Below are positions 15,126 through 30,483 of a DNA stretch of 61,010 nucleotides, one piece after another. The stretch is from positions 1-61,010 of the forward strand of contig JACVJK010000004.1 of assembly GCA_015711955.1 (NCBI GenBank). The letters are read 5' to 3'. A program made the position numbers and the translations under genes. The first letter of the stretch is position 1. The number at the start of each line of letters is the position of its first letter. The notes beneath the pieces are model-generated. The model made no database searches, was not told the DNA's origin, and was given only the letters and a program-made list of their open reading frames with translations. Source of the DNA: Actinomycetota bacterium. GTDB taxonomy: Bacteria > Actinomycetota > Geothermincolia > Geothermincolales > RBG-13-55-18.

Positions 15126-15803
15126 TTGGATCTTGAAAGAGGCGGGAGTCTTGTCGTGAGGGGAACCGAAGATCTTTGGGATGTGGACCGTGGCCTTAGG
15201 CGTTTCGCCTCCGCTGCGTTTCATCCGTTAGGTTGGGGATTGGCACAGATACTTAGCCCCAATGCCATGACCATCCTCTCGGGGATGATTTCCGCCGCTG
15301 TGGGATATTTCTTCGCAGTTGGCAGATTTTTCCTTGGGACTTGGCTCATGTTGGCCGCGGGACTTCTGGATATATGGGATGGGCAAGTGGCCAAGCTGAC
15401 GGGAAAGGTTTCCCTTTTGGGGGCCTTTTTGGATTCAACGGTGGATAGGGCGAGCGACATGCTCTACTCCTTTGGCGCCTTGTACTTCTTCTTGTCCCAG
15501 AGGAAGTACGACGTGGCGTTCATGATCGCCGGTTACGTGTTCCTTTCCACCATGATCAGCTACGTTAAGGCCAGGGCAGAGGGGTTGGGTCTTGCTTGCT
15601 CCGGTGGACTGCTGGCCCGCCCTCTGCGCATGCTCCTTTTCGGTTTCCCTCTTTATGTTTACGGGGTAATGGGCAACCTCTGGGTGTTTCGTGGATCCCT
15701 CGTTCTTTGCCTGCTACTGGGCACCGAAACCCTTGCTCGAAGGATACTGATGGTGGTAAAAGACGCGCGTCGAAGGGAGGACGCAGTGGCCGACAAAGGG
15801 TGA
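15126..15803 (+). CDS. pgsA: CDP-alcohol phosphatidyltransferase (phosphatidylinositol-phosphate synthase-like)
   Basis: The full motif D-x2-DG-x2-AK-x8-G-x3-D-x3-D is present (DIWDGQVAKLTGKVSLLGAFLDSTVDRASD). The protein is polytopic and sits first in a pgsA1-acyltransferase-pimA arrangement. Confidence 0.85.
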   Translation: MDLERGGSLVVRGTEDLWDVDRGLRRFASAAFHPLGWGLAQILSPNAMTILSGMISAAVGYFFAVGRFFLGTWLMLAAGLLDIWDGQVAKLTGKVSLLGAFLDSTVDRASDMLYSFGALYFFLSQRKYDVAFMIAGYVFLSTMISYVKARAEGLGLACSGGLLARPLRMLLFGFPLYVYGVMGNLWVFRGSLVLCLLLGTETLARRILMVVKDARRREDAVADKG

Positions 15804-15919
15804 ACCACAGTTTTGAGGTCCGAGGATGACAGGACTCGCAGAACGGTCGTGCGAGCGAGGGATATTCCCATAGAAAACAGATCCTGTTTGGTCCTTGGAT
15901 AGAGACGAAGGGGAGGGAG

Positions 15920-16831
15920 ATGGAGAAAAAGGTCGTTATGAAACAAAATCTTACAGGCTATCTGAACTACATCATGCTTCGCCTCTTTTGCTATCTCGCC
16001 GGATTGATCGACGCGAAGAAGGCTCATAGGATAGCGGCGTTCGTGGGGGACATTGCCTATTTCCTCTCGCGAAAAAAGAGGAAAGTGGTCCGAGAGAACA
16101 TGAGGAGGGTGTCTCCCCAGGCCGGGGAGCGAGAGTTGGATAACATGACCAGAAAGAGCTTTCAGAATTACGCCCGATATTGGTTGGATTTCTTGCGTTG
16201 TTGGCATCTCACCTTTGAAGAGATCTACAGGATAGTTGTACCTCATGGCGTGGAATGGATTGACCGGTGCCTGGAGCAGGGAAAAGGGGTTGTCTTTGCC
16301 CTTCCCCACTTCGGTAGCTGGGACATGCTGGGAGGCTGGGTGGGCTTGCAATATCCGAGCATGTGGGCGGTGGCGGAGCAGCTCAAGCCTCGTGCCCTCT
16401 TCGACTTCCACACGGAATTGAGACGCAGGATGGGTATAAAGATCATACCTCTGGGAGAGAACACCGCCGAGAAGGTCATCCAGGTTTGTATGGACAACGG
16501 CATCGTTTGCCTGCTCTCCGACCGGGTGGTGGCCGGGAGCGGGGTAGAGGTGGAGTTCTTCGGCGAGAGGGTACTCTTTCCCGTGGGACCGGCATTGCTG
16601 GCGGTGAAACTGGGCACCCCCATCCTACCCTGTCTCACCATCCGCGAGGGGGGCATGTACCACGGCTATGTGGGCCCTCCCCTGGAGGTGGAAATTACCG
16701 GCGATACCCGCAGGGACGTACAGATCAACATGCAGAAACTGGCCAAGGTTTTCGAGGAGTTCATCCGACGTGACCCCACCCAGTGGCACATGTTCCAACC
16801 CCTTTTCAAGGAAGAACGGGAACGGAATTAG
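15920..16831 (+). CDS. Lysophospholipid/lipid A-type acyltransferase (HtrB/LpxL family; PIM acyltransferase-like)
   Basis: The HtrB-family layout is present (N-terminal TM, LPHFGSWD corresponding to the HX4D box region). It is positioned like M. tuberculosis Rv2611c, between pgsA1 and pimA. Confidence 0.8.
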   Translation: MEKKVVMKQNLTGYLNYIMLRLFCYLAGLIDAKKAHRIAAFVGDIAYFLSRKKRKVVRENMRRVSPQAGERELDNMTRKSFQNYARYWLDFLRCWHLTFEEIYRIVVPHGVEWIDRCLEQGKGVVFALPHFGSWDMLGGWVGLQYPSMWAVAEQLKPRALFDFHTELRRRMGIKIIPLGENTAEKVIQVCMDNGIVCLLSDRVVAGSGVEVEFFGERVLFPVGPALLAVKLGTPILPCLTIREGGMYHGYVGPPLEVEITGDTRRDVQINMQKLAKVFEEFIRRDPTQWHMFQPLFKEERERN

Positions 16832-17985
16832 CTGCGAGGGCGATTCGGAACACACCAGAACCCGACGCCGAAACAGGGGCAAGGCCGTATGGGCCGAGGC
16901 GAACGAGACGCTTTTGACCTGTGGTGGTAGTGGGGGCAAGGCTTGATCTGCCAGGGCGAGGGGTATTAGGGCCGTTCATTCACCCAGATAGATGAAGATT
17001 TGGCAGAAAAGCGAGGATATTGGCGGGAACTGCGGCGTTTGCCTCAGCGCTCTTTCGTGTTTTACCAACTTTGGTCGGCGAAAGCGCCCATGCTACTCGG
17101 TCTGCGCTTAAAACCAATTTTCACGGGATTTCCCCTTGACCACCATTCCGGGCCTCATTCGAGCTCTGTTTTTGCGCTCGAGACCGTATTATCCGAAGAA
17201 TGGTAACAGTTACCAGAGAAAAAAGTGGCCGTGGTTCAGGAGGCCAGCGCGGCACATGCCTGAGGATTTCATGAGAAGGCATGGTAAAAGTAATACCCTC
17301 TTTTAGGAGCCTGCTTTGGGTCAATCTTGAGTTTCCCTTTATTGAGGCCTTGGGGAGTGGGGTTTTGGAGAAGGTATTGGTACTCTTCGGCGACGTGGCC
17401 GTGTCCAAAGATGAGCGGGCGGGGCATGTGCAGGATATGCCCGGGGTTGCCCGTTTCGCAGCGATCGCTGGCACTTAGCAACCCAAAGAGCCCTTGGCTT
17501 TAAAGCAGTTTACCTCTTCATGGACCACGGCGCCAGCCCATTTCGTTTTTTACGAGAGATATGCGGTTTCCTGCGAAGTTTCAGCGCCCTTGAAAACAGG
17601 TTGAAGGACAAGTGGTTTAAAAGAGAGTACGGGATACCCTGAGCTTTAACAATGCCTTCTGCCTATCTCCACGCCATCCGTGTCCGGATACGTCAAGTGC
17701 CCCGCGCTTTTTGTGGAACGCAATAGGAAAGAAGGGCGTTCACACTGCCGCGGGCAATGTTTGTATGAGATGTATCGCGGACTCACAGATTTTGGGAGAA
17801 TAAGCCCTAATGATGGAGGAAGAGGAGCTCTGGGAGTATCTGCCAAAAAGCGTCTTTGCCCTGAGGACATATCGGGAGACAGCGCTGGAAGGGAACTTCG
17901 CAATTCCTGGAAAGCGCGGAGAGGGACGCGGCCTCATACGCCGCGCCCCTCTACTTAAACTGGGAAGCTATATTCAGCCTTCCCT

Positions 17986-19533
17986 TCAAGCAGGGGAATA
18001 CATGGCCCTCAATTCCTTTTTGAGGATCTTACCGGTCGCGGTCCGGGGCAGGGCCTCGGCGAAGACCACCTTCTTGGGTATCTTGTACTTGGCCAACCTG
18101 CCCTGACAGAATTGGATTACCTCCTCCTCGGTTATCTCCACCCCGGGCTTGGGAACAACCACCGCTAGCCCCACCTCTCCCCACTTCTCGTCGGGGATTC
18201 CGATGACGCCCACATCGGCCACTTTTTCAAAGCCCATGATCACGTCCTCCACCTCCGCGGGGTAGACGTTCTCGCCCCCACTTATGTACATGTCCTTTTT
18301 TCGGTCAATCAAATATAAGTAGCCCTCATCGTCGATGTATCCCATGTCGCCGGTGTGCAACCAACCGTCGGTAAAGGACTCGGCGGTGGCCTCGGGGAGC
18401 CTCCAGTATTCCCGTATGACGTTGGGACCTTTAACCCACACCTCGCCCATCTGTCCCGGAGGAAGTTCGTTGCCCTCTGAGTCCACCACTTTTATGTCGG
18501 TGTGGAACACGGGTTTTCCGCAGGACCCTATTTTCCTCAGGGCGTCTTCTTGGCGCAAGGCGGTGATGGCGGTGGCCGTTTCCGTCATGCCGTAGCCCTG
18601 ATTGAAGGTGATGCCCTTTTTGAGCCAGGTCTCGATCAGGGGGCGGGGGCATGGGGCACCACCGGCGATGAAGAAGCGAACGCTGGAGTAATCGGTGCTC
18701 TCGAACTCAGGCACCTGGGTCATGAGCAAGAACATCACCGGGATACCGAACATGAAAGTGACCCCCTCCCTCTCTATGAGTTGAAGGGTCTCGGAGGGAT
18801 TGAAAAAGCGTTGGATGACCACCTTGGCCCCTGCGTACATGGCCGGGAAGGCTGAGACGGCCAAGCCACCTATATGGAAAAGGGGAGCGCAGGCTATGCT
18901 CACGTCTCCGCTATCGAAAGCGTACATGTGTATGGAGTTGATGGCGTTCCATTGGGTGTTGCCGTGTAAGATGCAGGCCCCCTTGGGTTTACCCGTAGTC
19001 CCCGAGGTGTACATTATTATGTGAATGTCATCCAAAGTCACTGGATGGTCGGTAAGGGGCTCATCTCCAGGGCGTCCCTTAACCCACTCCTCGTATAAAA
19101 GGTCATTGGAGTTGCCGCCCTCCTTTTCGGCGATCACGTGGGCCAAACTGGGCACCTTGTCCCGGAGGGCTTCCACCGAAGCAGTGAACTCCGGGCTGTA
19201 GAACAGGGCGATGGGCTCCGAGTCATTGAGGATGTATTCCAGCTCGGGGGGAGCCAGGCGGAAATTGAGGGGCACGAAAATCCCTCCCAACTTGTTCAAG
19301 GCGAAATGTATCTCCAGAAAGCGGTGGCAGTTGGCCATTAGCACGGCCACTCGGGTACCTTTTCTCACGCCCATCTCCTGCAGGCCGTGGGCTACTTGGT
19401 TTACCCGGCGGTTGAAGTCGGCTTTGGAAAGCTCCATGTCACCGCATTTCAAATAGGGTTCTTCGGGATAGCGGATGGCCCAGCGAGTAGGCCACTCTCC
19501 CACGTTTAAATTGCCCCATGCGCCGGCTTTCAT
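17986..19533 (-). CDS. AMP-dependent acyl-CoA synthetase/ligase
   Basis: Motifs YTSGTTGKPKG, GYGMTE, HTGDMGY and PRTATGKILK are present. ATG 19533 lies 11 nt after the AGGAGGG SD. The GTG at 19542 is too close to the SD. Confidence 0.9.
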   Translation of the reverse strand: MKAGAWGNLNVGEWPTRWAIRYPEEPYLKCGDMELSKADFNRRVNQVAHGLQEMGVRKGTRVAVLMANCHRFLEIHFALNKLGGIFVPLNFRLAPPELEYILNDSEPIALFYSPEFTASVEALRDKVPSLAHVIAEKEGGNSNDLLYEEWVKGRPGDEPLTDHPVTLDDIHIIMYTSGTTGKPKGACILHGNTQWNAINSIHMYAFDSGDVSIACAPLFHIGGLAVSAFPAMYAGAKVVIQRFFNPSETLQLIEREGVTFMFGIPVMFLLMTQVPEFESTDYSSVRFFIAGGAPCPRPLIETWLKKGITFNQGYGMTETATAITALRQEDALRKIGSCGKPVFHTDIKVVDSEGNELPPGQMGEVWVKGPNVIREYWRLPEATAESFTDGWLHTGDMGYIDDEGYLYLIDRKKDMYISGGENVYPAEVEDVIMGFEKVADVGVIGIPDEKWGEVGLAVVVPKPGVEITEEEVIQFCQGRLAKYKIPKKVVFAEALPRTATGKILKKELRAMYSPA

Positions 19534-20477
19534 GGACGGCACCTCCCTCCTTGTACTTTTGCGTCTCCTGTACGTTTACCGCAAAATCCCGCTCACGATC
19601 CCTTGCTTGGAGAACAAGAACGCTTGTGAAAAGGAAAACCCTTGATCTCTAGGCATCACCCCCTTTCTCGTGGAGAGAATTCCCACGCCAACCTCATAGA
19701 GTCATTGGATTGCTCATGCCGACCAGCCGTACAGCCGTAGTAGTTATATTGCCCCTCCTTTTGGGGGATAAACATGGTCGGTGAGCTCGGCCCAATTCGG
19801 GCAGCAAGGGCAAACGGTCCGCAAGTCGTCCCCTGAACCAAACCTTGCCGTCCGAAAAGGAGTCCTATTGCCGCTTCTGTACCTCGAATCGCTGTCGCAT
19901 TTCCGATTACAAGGAGGAAGAAGGACAACCGGATTTGATTCTGGCCACTGTACGCTGACCGCAAGCAAGCGCAGTAAAGTTAGCGGGGAAAGATCCGGGG
20001 AATCGTTAAGCGGGATGATCATGATAAATGACAAGATTCATATTGGACGAAGGTTTGGTTTTCCGAATACGTGGTGATGAAGTTGGGCGAACACCCTAAC
20101 TTGCCTCGCGAAAAAACCGTACACAGGCGCAAAATGGGGCAAGAAAGTCATATACTGGCTGGAAAAGCCGTGCCCCGTGACCACCTATAAGCTCCTGAAT
20201 TACAACTGATCCGTTAACCCTGATGCTCTCTTTTACAGGAACTACTGGAAAGTAGGAGAGGAGTGAAGATTTTTGAGGGCAACAAATCGCTCCACTATTG
20301 GGGTCAACGCGATTTTGTTCGCCTAGTTGATTGATGGACGCATGAGGGGGGTGGCCGTTTTCGCCCCCAGCGTGCATGAGATCTAACACTATCAACTGGG
20401 GCAAAAGGGTCTGGGGCGAGAAAACCGCACTGGCCACGCCTTCTCCCTCGTGGTCAGTTGTTTCTGAAGGGGAAAAG

Positions 20478-22010
20478 CTATTCGGCGTGTTTATGGGCCT
20501 TGGCGAACCTCTCCCCGGCTAACGATGCCAAAGGGAAGACGATCATGGGAACCAGCATCGCCACGCTTCCGGCAAAAGGGATCCAGGGGGTGCTCAGGGA
20601 AAAGGGTTTGCCCGTTCGGAGGCACCACCACCAAGAGAGGCCTATGGACAGGCCCAAAGAGCAGGCCGTGCCCGCAAAGAGAGAGGCCCAGGCTCCGGTG
20701 GCGTTTGCCCTTTTCCAGAACAGGCCATAGAGGTAAGGGGCAATGAAGGCACCGGTTATGGTTCCCCAGGAGATGGACATCATGTTCACGATGAAAGACC
20801 AAGGCCTCAAGGCGATGAAGAGGGAGATGATCACGAATAGGCCGCAAAGACCTCTCAAGAGCCAAGCGCTCCTCTTGACGCCCAGGGACTTTTCCCCGCC
20901 CATCAAATCCACCACCACTGAGGATCCTGAGATGAGCACCAAAGAGGACAGGGTGGACATGGACGCCGATAACACCATCAACATTATCAGGACGGATAAG
21001 GCTTGGGGGAGATGGCGGTTCACCAGGGCCGGCATCAAGTTATCCGCTCCCAGTAGGGTTACCTCCTCCGGAGAGAAGAAGACGCGGGTGAAGGCTCCGG
21101 AAAAGTATGCGCCAAAAGTACAGATGAGGGCAAAACCGGTGGAAACCACCATAGCCCTGCGGGAGCTCTCGGCGCTTTTTATGGAATAGAACTTCTGCAC
21201 CATCTGAGGAAGGCCGACGGGCCCCAGGGAGGTCAGAACCACCAAAGACAAAAGGCCCAGCCAGGTGGGAGGGGAAAATGGCGACTGGGTTACCGGGGTG
21301 TTTCTCACCATCTCCAGGGCCTTGCTCACCCCGCCCTCTAACATGGAAGCTTTCAAAAGCACGAGGATCACCAGCAACGCTGACCCCAGTACCATGATTA
21401 GGCCCTGTATGAAGTTCACCAAGGCGATGGCCAGGTAACCTCCAAAAACTATGTAAAAGCCGGTGAGCAGGGCCATGGTGGATAGGGCCAAGGAGTAATC
21501 GATCCCCAACACTTCCTCGAATAGGTACGAGAGGCCCATGTAGACCGATGAGGAGTAAGGGATCAGGAAGAGGAAAATTATTAGGGCGGAGGTCTTCATG
21601 AACAGGTCGCTGCCGTACAGATGTCGAAAGAGTTCTGGCATGGTCATGACTCCGAGGTGGGCGGTTAACTCGCGTGTGCGGGCTGCCAATATCAGCCAAG
21701 GAAGGAGGGTTCCGATCAATACGTTGCCCGCCACAATCCATAGGCCGCCCAATCCGTAGCCCCAGCCGATCCTTCCCGCGTATCCCACGAAAAGGACGGC
21801 GGAGAAATAGGTAGTGCCGTAGGCAAAAGCGGAGAGCCATGGGCCGATGGAGCGGTCTGCGAGGATGAAGGAAGTGATATCCCTGGCGCGCCTCGATGAG
21901 TACAGGGCTAATATCACCAGGGAGGCGATATAAACCGCAAGGACTGCGATCTTGGCTGCGTTCATGGAAACCTGCCTTGTTGGATGGCTTATTTTATCAC
22001 GGGAGGCCAA
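20478..22010 (-). CDS. Sodium:solute symporter family (SSF) transporter
   Basis: The roughly 500-aa protein has about 13 hydrophobic segments and an SSF-like pattern (GYAGRIGWGYG, LPQMVQKFYS). The real start is possibly ATG 21965. Confidence 0.85.
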   Translation of the reverse strand: MASRDKISHPTRQVSMNAAKIAVLAVYIASLVILALYSSRRARDITSFILADRSIGPWLSAFAYGTTYFSAVLFVGYAGRIGWGYGLGGLWIVAGNVLIGTLLPWLILAARTRELTAHLGVMTMPELFRHLYGSDLFMKTSALIIFLFLIPYSSSVYMGLSYLFEEVLGIDYSLALSTMALLTGFYIVFGGYLAIALVNFIQGLIMVLGSALLVILVLLKASMLEGGVSKALEMVRNTPVTQSPFSPPTWLGLLSLVVLTSLGPVGLPQMVQKFYSIKSAESSRRAMVVSTGFALICTFGAYFSGAFTRVFFSPEEVTLLGADNLMPALVNRHLPQALSVLIMLMVLSASMSTLSSLVLISGSSVVVDLMGGEKSLGVKRSAWLLRGLCGLFVIISLFIALRPWSFIVNMMSISWGTITGAFIAPYLYGLFWKRANATGAWASLFAGTACSLGLSIGLSWWWCLRTGKPFSLSTPWIPFAGSVAMLVPMIVFPLASLAGERFAKAHKHAE

Positions 22011-22213
22011 ATGGGTTTAAAGAGCGGGAAAGGGAGTAGAGTACGGACCACTGGCTGTCGCTCCCGTATAGGGCGATCGACCTGATACTGGCTTCGAGTA
22101 GATCGAATACAGGGGACGAAGTATTCGCGAAAGTTGCTTCTGGATCGGGGTTTTCCCGCAAGAGCACCTTTGCCTCAACCCCTCCCCGCCTCGATGGCAA
22201 ATGAAGAATGACG

Positions 22214-23383
22214 TCAGTCCCTCTCGACGTTAACCTCCAGCACCGGTCCTTTTAAGCTCCAATGAGGGGTCGACGACGTGACACCGGAAACCACCTCGTA
22301 GTAGCCCTGCAAAAGGCCCACCAAAAGAAGATGCAAGGCCGGGTTGACCATGCGAAGGAACAGGCCTTCAGGGCCAACCCGGAACTCTTCCAGGTAACCC
22401 AACCCCCGCACGGCCAGCAGTCTCCTGAACTCCTCGAGGGTCCCTATGTCGTCGGGCGAGTAAAGACGTCCGCTCTTCACGAATAGCCGCTGTGCCTCCA
22501 CTATCGTTTGAGGTATTTCCTCCCCCAACTCCCGCTCCATCTCGGCGAAGATCGCTTCCAGGTATGCTGGACCTATCATGCAGAGGCGTCTTCCGGAAAG
22601 ACGATCAACGATGATGCCCTCATCGGGGTCCCAAGAGAACCAGGCTAACTCCTGGGGCCCGCCGCAGGAGGGACATGGCTCCAGGTTGTAACCCACTGGT
22701 TGATATGGGTATCTACGAGTTTTGAGTCGCTCCTGGAACTGAGGGGGGTGTTCAGAGGGAAAAACCCTGATCCTGACCAAGTCGTCACCTACCACCTGGT
22801 ATTCAACGTCATTGTCTCGGGAAGTGACCGCCTCCACCGCGCCGGTCATGTCACCGCACCACAAGGGTACTGAATACGGGTTATTGACCACTTGAGTGAG
22901 GTGATCGTCCTCCTGGTATTGGAACTTGTAGCTTTCCAGCTTGGGCTTCCCGTATCCCATGGCCACCGAGATGGCGTTGTTTGCCTGTATGAGAGGCTCC
23001 ACCGGGATCTCAAGTCGCCTCACTCCCTCTCTCACCTCCGGTGGAGTGATGCGTAAGACATAATCCCGAGTGGCCCTCCTTTTGGTCTCTATGACTATGC
23101 GTTCTATGGGGATGGCTAAAAGTTCCTCGATCTTGCGGAAAAGCAAGTCGAGGTTCTCCGTTTCCACGAGCACCATCCTGTGATCGAGATCCAAGCTCTG
23201 CACGGTTACCCCTCCGTCTAGCCATCGATGGTTGGCCACGAAGAGCAGGGGTGCACCGCAGGTGAGGCATCGCTCAAGCCCGAGGTCTTGGTCCAAGATA
23301 ACACCTCCCTCTACTTTATTCGGGGTGCGCTTGAACGCTTCTCGATGGTCTGGTCGAATGTTCGCGTCGGACTTACGCCACAT
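22214..23383 (-). CDS. Hypothetical protein with two tandem CxxC + V4R-like modules
   Basis: An internal duplication is visible. CLTCGAPLLFVANHRWLDGG...RMVLVETENLDLLFRKIEELL...NNPYSVPLWCGDMTGAVEAV aligns with CPSCGGPQELAWFSWDPDEG...RRLCMIGPAYLEAIFAEMEREL...VNPALHLLLVGLLQGYYEVV. A strong SD (AGGGAGGTG) precedes an internal TTG at 23296, which may be the true start. Confidence 0.6.
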   Translation of the reverse strand: MWRKSDANIRPDHREAFKRTPNKVEGGVILDQDLGLERCLTCGAPLLFVANHRWLDGGVTVQSLDLDHRMVLVETENLDLLFRKIEELLAIPIERIVIETKRRATRDYVLRITPPEVREGVRRLEIPVEPLIQANNAISVAMGYGKPKLESYKFQYQEDDHLTQVVNNPYSVPLWCGDMTGAVEAVTSRDNDVEYQVVGDDLVRIRVFPSEHPPQFQERLKTRRYPYQPVGYNLEPCPSCGGPQELAWFSWDPDEGIIVDRLSGRRLCMIGPAYLEAIFAEMERELGEEIPQTIVEAQRLFVKSGRLYSPDDIGTLEEFRRLLAVRGLGYLEEFRVGPEGLFLRMVNPALHLLLVGLLQGYYEVVSGVTSSTPHWSLKGPVLEVNVERD

Positions 23384-23522
23384 CTATTCACTATTATTTG
23401 CTTCAATGTGAGAGTTCCTCCTCCCTTCATCTTCTTATGGGCGAACAAGCTCGACAGGCAAGAAAAGGGGGCAGGATAACCAAGTTACTGGGACCCCCTT
23501 GAGGATCACCCATCCCCGCTGA

Positions 23523-23616
23523 TTTCCCGGAGGGGTCAAAAGACACGTGGAAGGCCTGGCTAGGGCATTGCGATCTCGAGGCCACCGGGTCATCGTGATG
23601 GCCCCCGCCAGACGCG
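23523..23616 (+). repeat. Upstream copy of a perfect 94-bp direct repeat, a promoterless fragment of pimA codons 13-44
   Basis: This copy is identical base for base to 23672-23765. An in-frame TGA precedes it immediately and there is no start codon, so it looks like a gene-fragment remnant. Confidence 0.9.
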
Positions 23617-23635
23617 AAAGATTTAAAATACCCTC

Positions 23636-24718
23636 ATGAGAGTCCTCATGGTCTCCCCCTATTCCTGGGACTTTCCCGGAGGGGTCAAAAGACACGTGGA
23701 AGGCCTGGCTAGGGCATTGCGATCTCGAGGCCACCGGGTCATCGTGATGGCCCCCGCCAGACGCGGTGGGGAGAATTTCATCTCCGCCGGAAGATCTGTA
23801 CCGATACCCTTCAATCGGTCTGTGGCCAGGCTGGGGTTGGGGCCGGGAACCCTGAAAGCCGTTTTTTCCGCTTTACGAATGGACTTCGATATTGTGCATC
23901 TTCACGAGCCGTTGGTGCCCGGGCCCTGCCTTTTGAGTTTGGTCAGTAATTCCTTGCCTCTGGTGGGGACTTTTCACGCTGCTCGGGAGGAGGGAAGCTG
24001 GGCCTATGCCTTGGGACGGCCTTGCCTTTCCAAGTTGATAGGGAGGCTGTCTGCCAGGATAGCCGTGAGTCCAGCGGCGGAGTCATTCGTATCCCGTTAC
24101 TTCCCAGGAGATTACCGTATTATTCCCAATGGGGTTGACATCGAGACATTCAGCCCCCACGGCACTGACCTGAGGGAAAGCCTTGGGCTTGATCGACAAG
24201 GCATGGTATTCCTCTTCGTCGGCAGGAATGAGCCCAGGAAGGGTTTGGCGATAGCGCTGAAGGCCTTCAAGCGCTTTAGATCTTCTGGGCGAAAAGCGTG
24301 GATGCTGGTGGTGGGGACGGACGATGTCCCTGAGAAGGAAGACGGAGTACTGCCGATGGGGGTCGTGGGAGAAGAGGAGCTTCCCTCCGTTTATCGCACA
24401 GCGGACTTGTTGTTGGCTCCCTCTTTGGGAGGCGAGAGTTTCGGTATGATCCTGGTGGAGGCCATGGCCTGCGGAGTCCCGGTGATAGCCTCGGATATTC
24501 CCGGTTACCGCTACGTTTTGGCTGATGGCATAGGCGGGAGGTTGGTGCCTCCTGGAGACGTAGATGCTCTGCTGAGGTCCATGGAGGAATTGGCGACAGA
24601 TCCCTTGCTGAGAAGGGATATGGCAGTTGATGCTCTGGAGCGAGCCAAACAGTTCTCCTGGGCTTGGGTCTCGCAGCTCGTGGAGGAGGTGTACAGGGAG
24701 GCTGTCGCGGGCCCCTGA
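23636..24718 (+). CDS. pimA: GT4-family glycosyltransferase, phosphatidylinositol alpha-mannosyltransferase-like
   Basis: The N-terminus MRVLMVSPYSWDFPGGVKRHV resembles PimA. The GT-B C-terminal motif is ESFGMILVEAMACGVPVIASDIPG. The genomic context is a PI gene cluster. Confidence 0.85.
   Translation: MRVLMVSPYSWDFPGGVKRHVEGLARALRSRGHRVIVMAPARRGGENFISAGRSVPIPFNRSVARLGLGPGTLKAVFSALRMDFDIVHLHEPLVPGPCLLSLVSNSLPLVGTFHAAREEGSWAYALGRPCLSKLIGRLSARIAVSPAAESFVSRYFPGDYRIIPNGVDIETFSPHGTDLRESLGLDRQGMVFLFVGRNEPRKGLAIALKAFKRFRSSGRKAWMLVVGTDDVPEKEDGVLPMGVVGEEELPSVYRTADLLLAPSLGGESFGMILVEAMACGVPVIASDIPGYRYVLADGIGGRLVPPGDVDALLRSMEELATDPLLRRDMAVDALERAKQFSWAWVSQLVEEVYREAVAGP
23672..23765 (+). repeat. Downstream copy of the 94-bp direct repeat, inside the intact pimA-like gene
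   Basis: It is identical to 23523-23616 and encodes FPGGVKRHVEGLARALRSRGHRVIVMAPARR. Confidence 0.9.
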
Positions 24719-24847
24719 GGACATGACCGACGGCTATGGGCTGGGAGTTTTTGGATTGCCCTACCTCGAGACGAAGGCGGTCTTTCCCCTGGGAAGGGAA
24801 TCAAATCTATCGGTCGTATTGAAGCGGATCAATGGAGGCGGAAGAGA

Positions 24848-28699: not shown

Positions 28700-28784
28700 G
28701 GGTTTCATCCTCTCTCGTTTGTCGCCGTCATGGTCAGGAAACCCGGTACGGATGAAGGATAATCTTTCGTGGAGGTAGATAGTC

Positions 28785-29669
28785 ATGGAAGAGACGGGAA
28801 CCCTGAGGGTCAAGGCCGGTTTGGCCGAGATGCTCAAGGGCGGAGTGATCATGGATGTCACCACTCCCGAGCAGGCGATGATAGCCGAAGAGGCAGGAGC
28901 GGTGGCGGTGATGGCTTTGGAGAGGGTGCCGGCTGATATCCGGGCTGCGGGAGGCGTGGCACGCATGGCCGATCCCGAGATTATAGAAGCAATTATGGAA
29001 AAAGTTTCCATTCCTGTCATGGCCAAGGTGCGGATCGGCCACTTCGTAGAAGCCCAGATCCTGGAAGCCATAGGGGTGGATTATATAGACGAGAGCGAGG
29101 TCTTGACCCCGGCTGACGAGAGAAATCACATCAATAAGTGGGATTTCAAAGTACCCTTTGTATGCGGCGCCATCAACTTGGGAGAAGCCCTGCGACGGAT
29201 AGCCGAAGGTGCGGCCATGATCAGGACTAAAGGGGAAGCGGGCACCGGAAACGTGGTAGAGGCCGTCCGGCATATGCGCACCATACAGGGGGAGATAAAG
29301 AGGCTCACCGTGATGGAGGAAGAGGAGCTCATGGCGGCCGCCAAAGAGATGGGAGCACCTTATGAGTTGGTGCGCTGGGTGGCCGAGCACGGTAAGCTGC
29401 CGGTGGTCAATTTCTCTGCCGGGGGCATCGCCACGCCGGCCGATGCGGCTCTCATGATGCAGTTGGGGGCCGATGGTATCTTTGTGGGCTCGGGGATCTT
29501 CAAGTCGGAGGATCCTGTGGCCAGAGCCCGGGCTATCGTCAGGGCCACCACCCATTACGACGATCCCAAGATTCTTGCTGAGGTCTCCCGGGGTTTGGGG
29601 AGGGCCATGGCAGGACGGGACATTGCCGAGATAGGTAGAGAGAACCTCATACAATTCAGGGGTTGGTGA
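28785..29669 (+). CDS. pdxS: Pyridoxal 5'-phosphate synthase, lyase subunit
   Basis: The sequence [37 protein letters not shown] is highly conserved. Confidence 0.97.
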
Positions 29670-29781
29670 GGAATATAGCTTGTTTATGCCACCTATTGTC
29701 AACTGTAAAGCGAAGAGCTTCGAGAGAATGAAGATTGGGGACGCCGGAAAGGAAAGTCCAATCGCTTTGTAGGTGAAGTCC

Positions 29782-30483
29782 ATGGAACGGAGCAAAAAAC
29801 CGACGGTGGGAGTTCTGGCCCTGCAGGGGGCGGTTAGAGAGCATCTTCGCTCCCTGGCGGATTGTGGGGCTCGGGGGGTGGCGGTGAGGTATCCCTCCGA
29901 GCTCTCTTTATGCGACGGATTGATCATTCCTGGTGGCGAGAGCACCACCATCGGACGGCTCATGAGAGAATACGGTTTCATCGATGAGATCAAGCGCTTG
30001 GCCGGTGAAGGTATGCCCTTGTATGGCACTTGCGCTGGGCTCATACTCATGGCCAAGCGCCTTGTCGAGGGTGACCAACCCCTTCTCGGGCTCATGGACG
30101 TGACGGTGCGCCGGAACGCTTTCGGAAGACAGGTGGACAGCTTTGAAACCGATTTGCGGATCGAGGGAATCGAAGAGGAGGAACGCCCCTTTCGCTGCGT
30201 TTTCATCCGGGCCCCCTGGATCGAGGAAGTAGGATCCGAGGTAAGGGTGTTGGCAATCCATCGAGGAAAGGTGGTAGCGGCCTGTCAGAAAAACATGTTG
30301 GCCACCGCCTTTCATCCTGAGCTCACCCCTGATCTGCGGGTACATCGACTTTTTCTGGGGATGATCACCGAAGGAGAGCGGTTGTTGCCTTCAATGGAGA
30401 ACCCGTTGCTCGAGTCGGGAGAAAGAGATACGCGTAGTGTAAATGGCAGGGAAAAGGTGGAGGAACAGCGGGTGAAGAATTGA
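29782..30483 (+). CDS. pdxT: Pyridoxal 5'-phosphate synthase, glutaminase subunit, with a roughly 40-aa C-terminal extension
   Basis: Motifs VGVLALQGA, PGGESTT, GTCAGLILMA and FHPELT are present. Confidence 0.93.
   Translation: MERSKKPTVGVLALQGAVREHLRSLADCGARGVAVRYPSELSLCDGLIIPGGESTTIGRLMREYGFIDEIKRLAGEGMPLYGTCAGLILMAKRLVEGDQPLLGLMDVTVRRNAFGRQVDSFETDLRIEGIEEEERPFRCVFIRAPWIEEVGSEVRVLAIHRGKVVAACQKNMLATAFHPELTPDLRVHRLFLGMITEGERLLPSMENPLLESGERDTRSVNGREKVEEQRVKN

Follow-up and report, generated by a model that had tools for sequence, protein, structure and literature searches.

The window, as the whole stretch of 61,010 nt that was analysed is called here, carries the genes of a PI/PIM cluster in two parts, which are separated by a block of other genes (Table 1). 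The gene proS also lies upstream on the + strand, and the 3' side of pimA is occupied by genes for an inositol-monophosphatase-family protein, LysE, LemA and an M48 peptidase. The names pimA and PI/PIM cluster are justified by the full-length similarity of the pimA product to PimA and by the PI/PIM gene neighbourhood: the best matches among solved structures were those of M. smegmatis PimA (2GEJ/4N9W, E ~3e-66, residues 1-357), with the next-best GT4 structure at E = 2e-23, and the product of the PIM acyltransferase gene exceeds the NCBIfam equivalog cutoff.

Table 1. Features of the pimA locus (positions are those of the window)
Feature	Position	Strand	Remarks
PI/PIM cluster, upstream half	15126-16831	+	PIP-synthase-like gene and PIM acyltransferase gene
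CDP-alcohol phosphatidyltransferase, PIP synthase-like	15126-15803	+	Pfam PF01066; NF045883 108 bits, below cutoff of 170
PIM acyltransferase	15920-16831	+	Pfam PF03279; NCBIfam NF005919 220 bits, cutoff 209
Old inserted block between PIM acyltransferase gene and pimA	16832-23296		~6.5 kb; mostly opposite strand
Acyl-CoA ligase (AMP-binding), in block	17986-19542	-	Pfam
Na+/solute symporter (SSF), in block	20478-22010	-	Pfam
Conserved protein, 360 aa, no assigned family	22214-23296	-	TTG start after GGGAGG; rightmost gene of block
Divergent intergenic region, 360-aa gene to pimA	23297-23635		339 nt
Repeat copy 1 (R1)	23523-23616	+	non-coding duplicate of pimA codons 13-44, in divergent intergenic region
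Spacer S	23617-23671	+	ancestral; conserved -10 box, pimA ATG (23636), codons 1-12
TAAAAT, -10-like hexamer (TANNNT)	23624-23629	+	-12 to -7 relative to the A of the ATG
pimA-like GT4 glycosyltransferase, 360 aa	23636-24718	+	Pfam Glyco_transf_4 and Glycos_transf_1
Repeat copy 2 (R2)	23672-23765	+	functional pimA coding sequence, codons 13-44

In scans of GTDB-representative genome contigs and JGI metagenome contigs nothing closer to the window's PimA than 41% identity was encountered, and an exact look-up of the protein (in its 360-aa and 356-aa forms) returned no other contig. A protein search led to two lineages with 64% PimA identity, L034 (JGI) and L035/L036/L037 (Logan). With this value PimA ranks lowest in conservation relative to L034 and L035 among the proteins of the neighbourhood.

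For the 360-aa protein encoded at the right end of the block no family was found in Pfam or NCBIfam. It contains two CxxC pairs (CLTC and CPSC) and is 71-75% identical to its orthologues in L035 and L034, the tblastn alignment beginning at their residue 1. The longest ORF of the gene would give 389 aa from the ATG at 23383 (22214-23383, - strand); the start is likely the TTG at 23296 rather than this ATG. Throughout the clade (the window, L034, L035 and L037) the gene is divergent from pimA. The intergenic region is longer in the window than in L035 (148 nt) and L034 (128 nt), 94 nt of this difference being due to R1. For positions 23297-23522 no resemblance to the window or to the relatives was found.

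A direct repeat at the 5' end of pimA

The initial annotation had described a perfect 94-bp direct repeat with unrelated flanks, in which a 55-bp spacer contains the pimA start codon and the upstream copy encodes PimA residues 13-44 behind an in-frame TGA and without a start codon of its own. All of this was borne out. R1 and R2 are 100% identical over 94 nt, their start-to-start spacing is 149 nt (spacer S, 55 nt), and the sequences flanking them are unrelated on both sides. In 100 dinucleotide-preserving shuffles of the window not a single match with three or fewer mismatches was obtained. R1/R2 is the sole perfect repeat of at least 28 nt in the window, the runners-up being one of 46 nt with 72% and one of 29 nt with 79% identity; no third copy of R was found in the window when three mismatches were allowed, and Tandem Repeats Finder reported no array at the repeat. 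With X and Y for the flanks, the arrangement can be written as X-R-S-R-Y, in which 94 nt of the 149-nt period are duplicated (1.63 copies). The 55 nt preceding R1 have no significant resemblance to S (p = 0.07).

In pimA, R2 spans codons 13-43 and the first base of codon 44. Because 149 is not divisible by 3, R1 is shifted relative to the pimA frame; read in the frame of R2, it is immediately preceded by the TGA at 23520-23522, lacks a start codon and runs to a stop at 23637-23639 (stop-FPGGVKRHVEGLARALRSRGHRVIVMAPARRERFKIPS-stop). When the PimA proteins of the relatives were used as tblastn queries, R1 was seen as a second match at 23526-23606, with 74-78% identity. On the - strand, a 99-aa ORF (23435-23734) spans both repeat junctions. 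Another antisense ORF, of 213 aa (24083-24724, -), lies inside pimA, and one of 490 aa (28734-30206, -) lies opposite a 294-aa ORF on the + strand (28785-29669), which sits where the relatives carry a SOR_SNZ/PdxS gene. The three antisense ORFs, which gave no family match where tested, are probably spurious; a G+C content of ~56-58% makes long antisense ORFs common.

The spacer S also contains a second ATG (23648). The hexamer TAAAAT lies 7 nt downstream of the R1/S junction and ends 6 nt ahead of the first ATG, and no Shine-Dalgarno sequence or purine-rich stretch was found between hexamer and ATG. The same geometry, TA[A/G]AAT followed by 6-7 nt and ATG, is present in the window, L034, L035/L037, the more distant locus L087 and two contigs of run X3. 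The alignment of S with L034 and L035 reads TTCATTA[A/G]AATACCCGC-ATG-AAGGT.CTCATGGT, and the motif before the pimA start is TTCATTAAAATACCCGC-ATG in L034, TTCATTAGAATACCCGC-ATG in L035 and GATTTAAAATACCCTC-ATG in the window. Most transcription start sites of M. tuberculosis are preceded by a TANNNT -10 motif centred 7-12 nt before them; a -35 element is not conserved there, and one gene in four is leaderless (PMC3898074). The arrangement in the window corresponds to this mycobacterial promoter type. Taking into account the hexamer at -12 to -7 and the lack of a Shine-Dalgarno sequence, the sequence suggests that the pimA mRNA is leaderless, with a predicted start at 23636. Scans of the region with the sigma-70 consensus gave no result. 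Relative to the predicted promoter R1 occupies -20 to -113, and since the R1/S junction lies 7 nt upstream of the hexamer, the gene is complete and the one promoter determinant that can be recognised is undisturbed.

The existing gene call for this contig (P0001, 356 aa) begins at the second ATG. Because the product of the first ATG (MRVLM...) agrees with those of the relatives (MKVLM.., MNIGM..) and this ATG fits the leaderless geometry, the annotated start is probably four codons too short, the true start being 23636.

Read-derived contigs and related loci

The sequence is contained in only two public runs, X1 and X2, both of which are hot-spring metagenomes; no RNA run is among them. The locus has a patchy depth of ~4-6x in these runs, which were examined as Logan k=31 contigs. 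In X1, a contig of 179 nt corresponds exactly to positions 23587-23765, which comprise the final 30 nt of R and then S and R, and the next contig begins at 23736. Exactly such breaks are predicted for a k=31 graph if the 30 nt at the end of R lead both into S and into the remainder of pimA, the contig being the 149-nt loop broken at the branching 30-mer. Without a duplication, a contig would pass through S, R and pimA unbroken, and there would be none that starts at the end of R and then enters S. The X1 contig carries a SNP relative to the window, G23640A (amino acid change R2K, with K as in the relatives), and further SNPs are found along the locus; because of these SNPs of its own, X1 represents a somewhat different population. 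The word depth of the contig is 8.25, compared with 6.0 for the downstream contig, which is close to the 1.43-fold ratio that two copies of R would give. The R-to-S junction (23616/23617) is thus real DNA and not an invention of the assembler. It could be that X1 holds, instead, a full S-R-S-R tandem duplication. The left junction (23522/23523) falls into a coverage gap in both X1 and X2 and is covered only by the window assembly itself. For users of the contig, it is advisable to verify the assembly at the repeat before the region upstream of pimA is interpreted.

Relative to the window, X2 displays seven single-base deletions (at 17110, 17125, 19545, 20270, 20346, 22403 and 23307), all of them in homopolymer runs of 3-6 bases, and one of them would break a conserved ORF. 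Relaxed constraint was considered as an explanation and rejected, the homopolymer sites pointing to sequencing-platform errors. In X1, the word depth rises to 83 at 18848-19101 as compared with ~4 elsewhere, and the contigs there have unrelated loose ends; this jump is due to a conserved AMP-binding motif region common to a far more abundant organism and is not a feature of this genome.

In L034 and L035 the genes are arranged in the order proS, PIP-synthase-like gene, acyltransferase gene, block, pimA, IMPase-like gene, LysE and LemA, and the block consists of genes for a WYL regulator (+), the acyl-CoA ligase (-), a TM2 protein (+), the symporter (-) and the orthologue of the 360-aa protein (-). 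Identities between the window and these two loci are 88% for the acyl-CoA ligase, 82-86% for the acyltransferase, 80-88% for the PIP-synthase-like protein, 76-77% for the IMPase-like protein, 74-77% for the symporter and 71-75% for the 360-aa protein. In L086 (a MAG labelled Actinomycetota, 48%) and L087 (53%) pimA directly follows the acyltransferase gene, and neither block nor repeat is present. The initial annotation had spoken of a segment interrupting the PI operon, with which the adjacency of the two genes in L086 and L087 agrees: the block is an insertion into the cluster that is older than the split of the three lineages, which differ by 12-36% in protein sequence.

No repeat was found at the 5' end of pimA in L034 and L035/L037 despite the presence of the same block. 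Among 88 fetched loci searched by tblastn with the PimA N-terminus, an extra upstream fragment was detected only in the window, and no decayed copies of the repeat were found at the same position in the relatives. Since the block occurs without the repeat in L034 and L035/L037, it is far older than the perfect repeat, and with proteins 71-88% identical between the lineages, as against 100% for the repeat, its insertion is ancient. These comparisons suggest that the repeat is a later, lineage-specific event and not a relic of the block insertion. The stretch made up of S, R2 and the downstream sequence is collinear with the pimA of the relatives from the -10 box onward; it is the ancestral gene, with R1 as the new piece, and the idea that the pimA 5' end had been rebuilt can be discarded. 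In the 226 nt to the left of R1 no older remnants of pimA or of the spacer were found above shuffle controls on either strand, nor were copies of these 226 nt found above shuffle controls elsewhere in the window. It was also tested whether the intergenic DNA of the relatives derives from pimA 5' sequence, which is not the case.

Two stretches of the block in the window are free of ORFs, 16832-17985 (1.15 kb) and 19543-20477 (0.93 kb), and gave no Pfam, Rfam or tRNA match. The closest relatives carry in the same two slots, on the + strand, a WYL/HTH_11/WCX regulator and a TM2-domain protein, of which no trace was detected in the window by tblastn. Both stretches are real, being covered by X1 and X2 contigs, and most of the SNPs between the populations fall within them. 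They look like cases of gene loss with replacement by unrelated non-coding DNA.

Alternative explanations of the repeat

With a probability of about 0.7, we regard the repeat as a real, recent and lineage-specific local duplication by which pimA codons 13-44 were copied 149 nt upstream of themselves. If it were an assembly artefact, i.e. a spurious loop or mis-join at the shared 94 nt of a genome that has one copy, this would fit with the metagenomic contig of a low-abundance organism (two public runs at ~4-6x), with an X-to-R1 junction that no contig of X1 or X2 covers, and with the appearance of a perfect repeat with unrelated flanks, which is that of a mis-join, as had been remarked when the repeat was first described. 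This is, however, unlikely, since the R-to-S junction, impossible without a duplication, is present in the read-derived k=31 contigs of X1, in a contig that has a strain-specific SNP and a depth fitting two copies of R. Moreover, the gene order on either side is as in L034 and L035, so that no foreign DNA appears to have been joined; with the 360-aa gene and pimA being divergent neighbours in L034, L035 and L037, synteny is unbroken at the repeat, which argues against a chimeric join. A length of 94 is not known to be k or k-1 in the usual default k-mer series, which would speak against an artefact of an assembler run with such a series. The mis-join alternative put forward in the initial annotation is thus largely unsupported, and what remains of it concerns the X-to-R1 junction.

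The position of R1 had also invited the reading that the repeat is a recombination or insertion scar, made when the block entered, in an att-like manner, between the acyltransferase gene and pimA, whose 5' end was then rebuilt. A connection with the block is extremely improbable. The block is indeed an insertion relative to L086 and L087, and R1 is indeed close to its right edge, but not exactly at it, as 226 nt of unrelated intergenic DNA lie between R1 and the last gene of the block. The two copies do not flank the block, both being located to its right and 55 nt apart, and no integrase, recombinase or transposase domain was found in it with Pfam or NCBIfam. The insertion-scar reading was rejected on these grounds, together with the orthologous loci of L034 and L035/L037, where the block is present and the repeat absent, and with the contrast between an ancient block (71-88% protein identity) and a repeat identical to 100%. 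What stands of the scar claim is its more general part, in that a product of illegitimate recombination or slippage is the most likely origin. The comparison with relatives corrects in this way what is a natural reading of the repeat as an insertion edge.

Nothing in the data examined seems to point to a function for R1: no plausible ORF was found for it, it is not conserved among the relatives, no Rfam match or tRNA was found in the region, and the RNA folding of the region is no better than that of shuffles (z = -0.9). That R1 is a functional cis element, either a second factor-binding site or an antisense to the pimA mRNA which couples two genes, is very improbable. In its favour, R1 does fill the predicted pimA promoter from -20 to -113, a transcript through R1 towards the divergent gene could start from a TANNNT motif on the - strand (23630-23625), and at least two sampled populations have kept the repeat. 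Against this, TANNNT motifs are frequent by chance, the element is not conserved by the relatives and has neither significant RNA structure nor an Rfam match, and a lethal collapse would explain its persistence without a function. As actinobacterial promoters are without a conserved -35, a change upstream of -20 need not matter (PMC3898074). We likewise give little credence to R1 being transcribed from the shared AT-rich -10 region within an extended 5' UTR of the divergent gene, as a perfect pimA antisense of 94 nt, or being an operator duplicated from the 5' coding region of pimA. If the antisense case were true, envelope-lipid synthesis would be coupled to the neighbouring block, and in either regulatory case a regulatory element would have been born from a coding fragment and fixed, as recombination cannot remove it.

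Origin, persistence and known parallels

In the local duplication that we favour, the extra copy would most likely be a non-functional by-product of replication or repair. The ancestral unit, consisting of the -10 box, the leaderless ATG, the first 12 codons and the remainder of pimA, would have stayed intact, and the duplication is probably neutral or harmless, which is our assumption. The X-R-S-R-Y arrangement is not that of a one-step tandem duplication, which would have repeated the full 149-nt period and not just 94 nt of it. Two routes would both fit the anatomy. In one of them, two template switches would occur in the same event: the nascent strand would move forward over S, copy R and jump back; in the other, a 149-bp tandem duplication of [S + R] would be followed by a deletion or replacement which removed the first S. 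No convincing case of junction microhomology that would explain the event was found. MAFFT paired R1 with the intergenic DNA of L035, a pairing that was rejected, as local alignment and shuffles left only an 11-nt match; this match at the left junction (CTGATTTCCCG, p ~0.014, uncorrected) is marginal and at most a lead. Positions 23731-23740 and 23760-23769 can form a weak hairpin across the right end of R2 that could promote template switching, though its weakness makes it a poor basis for an argument.

If R1 and R2 recombined, S would be lost, and with it the -10 box, the ATG and codons 1-12, and the collapse product would have R left behind an in-frame TGA. PimA, PgsA1 and PatA are essential in mycobacteria (PMC4792965), and should the same hold for pimA here, such a product would not be viable. 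The repeat would then be locked in, because its collapse takes away the promoter and the first codons of what is probably an essential gene, and it could persist without a function because collapse would be lethal, which would also explain its presence in more than one sampled population. Taken alone, the repeat is of little weight, being one more small local duplication. By enclosing a promoter and start codon, R-S-R illustrates how a perfect direct repeat may escape recombinational collapse, and the block by which the PI/PIM cluster is divided in this clade of hot-spring actinobacteria is ancient.

The repeat resembles duplications generated by slippage or template switching (RecA-independent illegitimate recombination, serial replication slippage) in having perfect head-to-tail copies with a period of 149 nt, in being lineage-specific and recent, and in the absence of mobile-element genes. 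It differs from them in that only 94 of the 149 nt are repeated (1.63 copies), that no junction microhomology is demonstrable in the window, and that collapse would not restore the ancestral state and would, instead, delete promoter and start codon. Measured against a simple tandem duplication, the copies are near-identical and lineage-specific, but two full head-to-tail units are not present.

With the duplications at att sites and gene ends, such as those of islands in tRNA genes, the window shares a gene-end fragment duplicated by the edge of an inserted block. Here, in contrast, both copies lie on one side of the block, an integrase is lacking, and the relatives have the block without the repeat, the block being old and the repeat young. 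De Bruijn loops and mis-joins are similar to the window in that they involve a perfect repeat shorter than a read, unrelated flanks and a low-coverage metagenomic contig; they differ from it in that one junction of the window is present in the k-mers of an independent run, with a SNP of its own, and that synteny is held on either side. The cluster as a whole has its counterpart in the mycobacterial pgsA1-patA-pimA genes (Rv2612c-Rv2611c-Rv2610c). The same three gene families are found in the window in the same order, PimA is the top match among solved structures, and the PatA-type acyltransferase is above its NCBIfam equivalog cutoff; unlike in mycobacteria, patA is parted from pimA by the 6.5-kb block in the clade of the window, and pimA of the window has a predicted promoter of its own, of the leaderless type.
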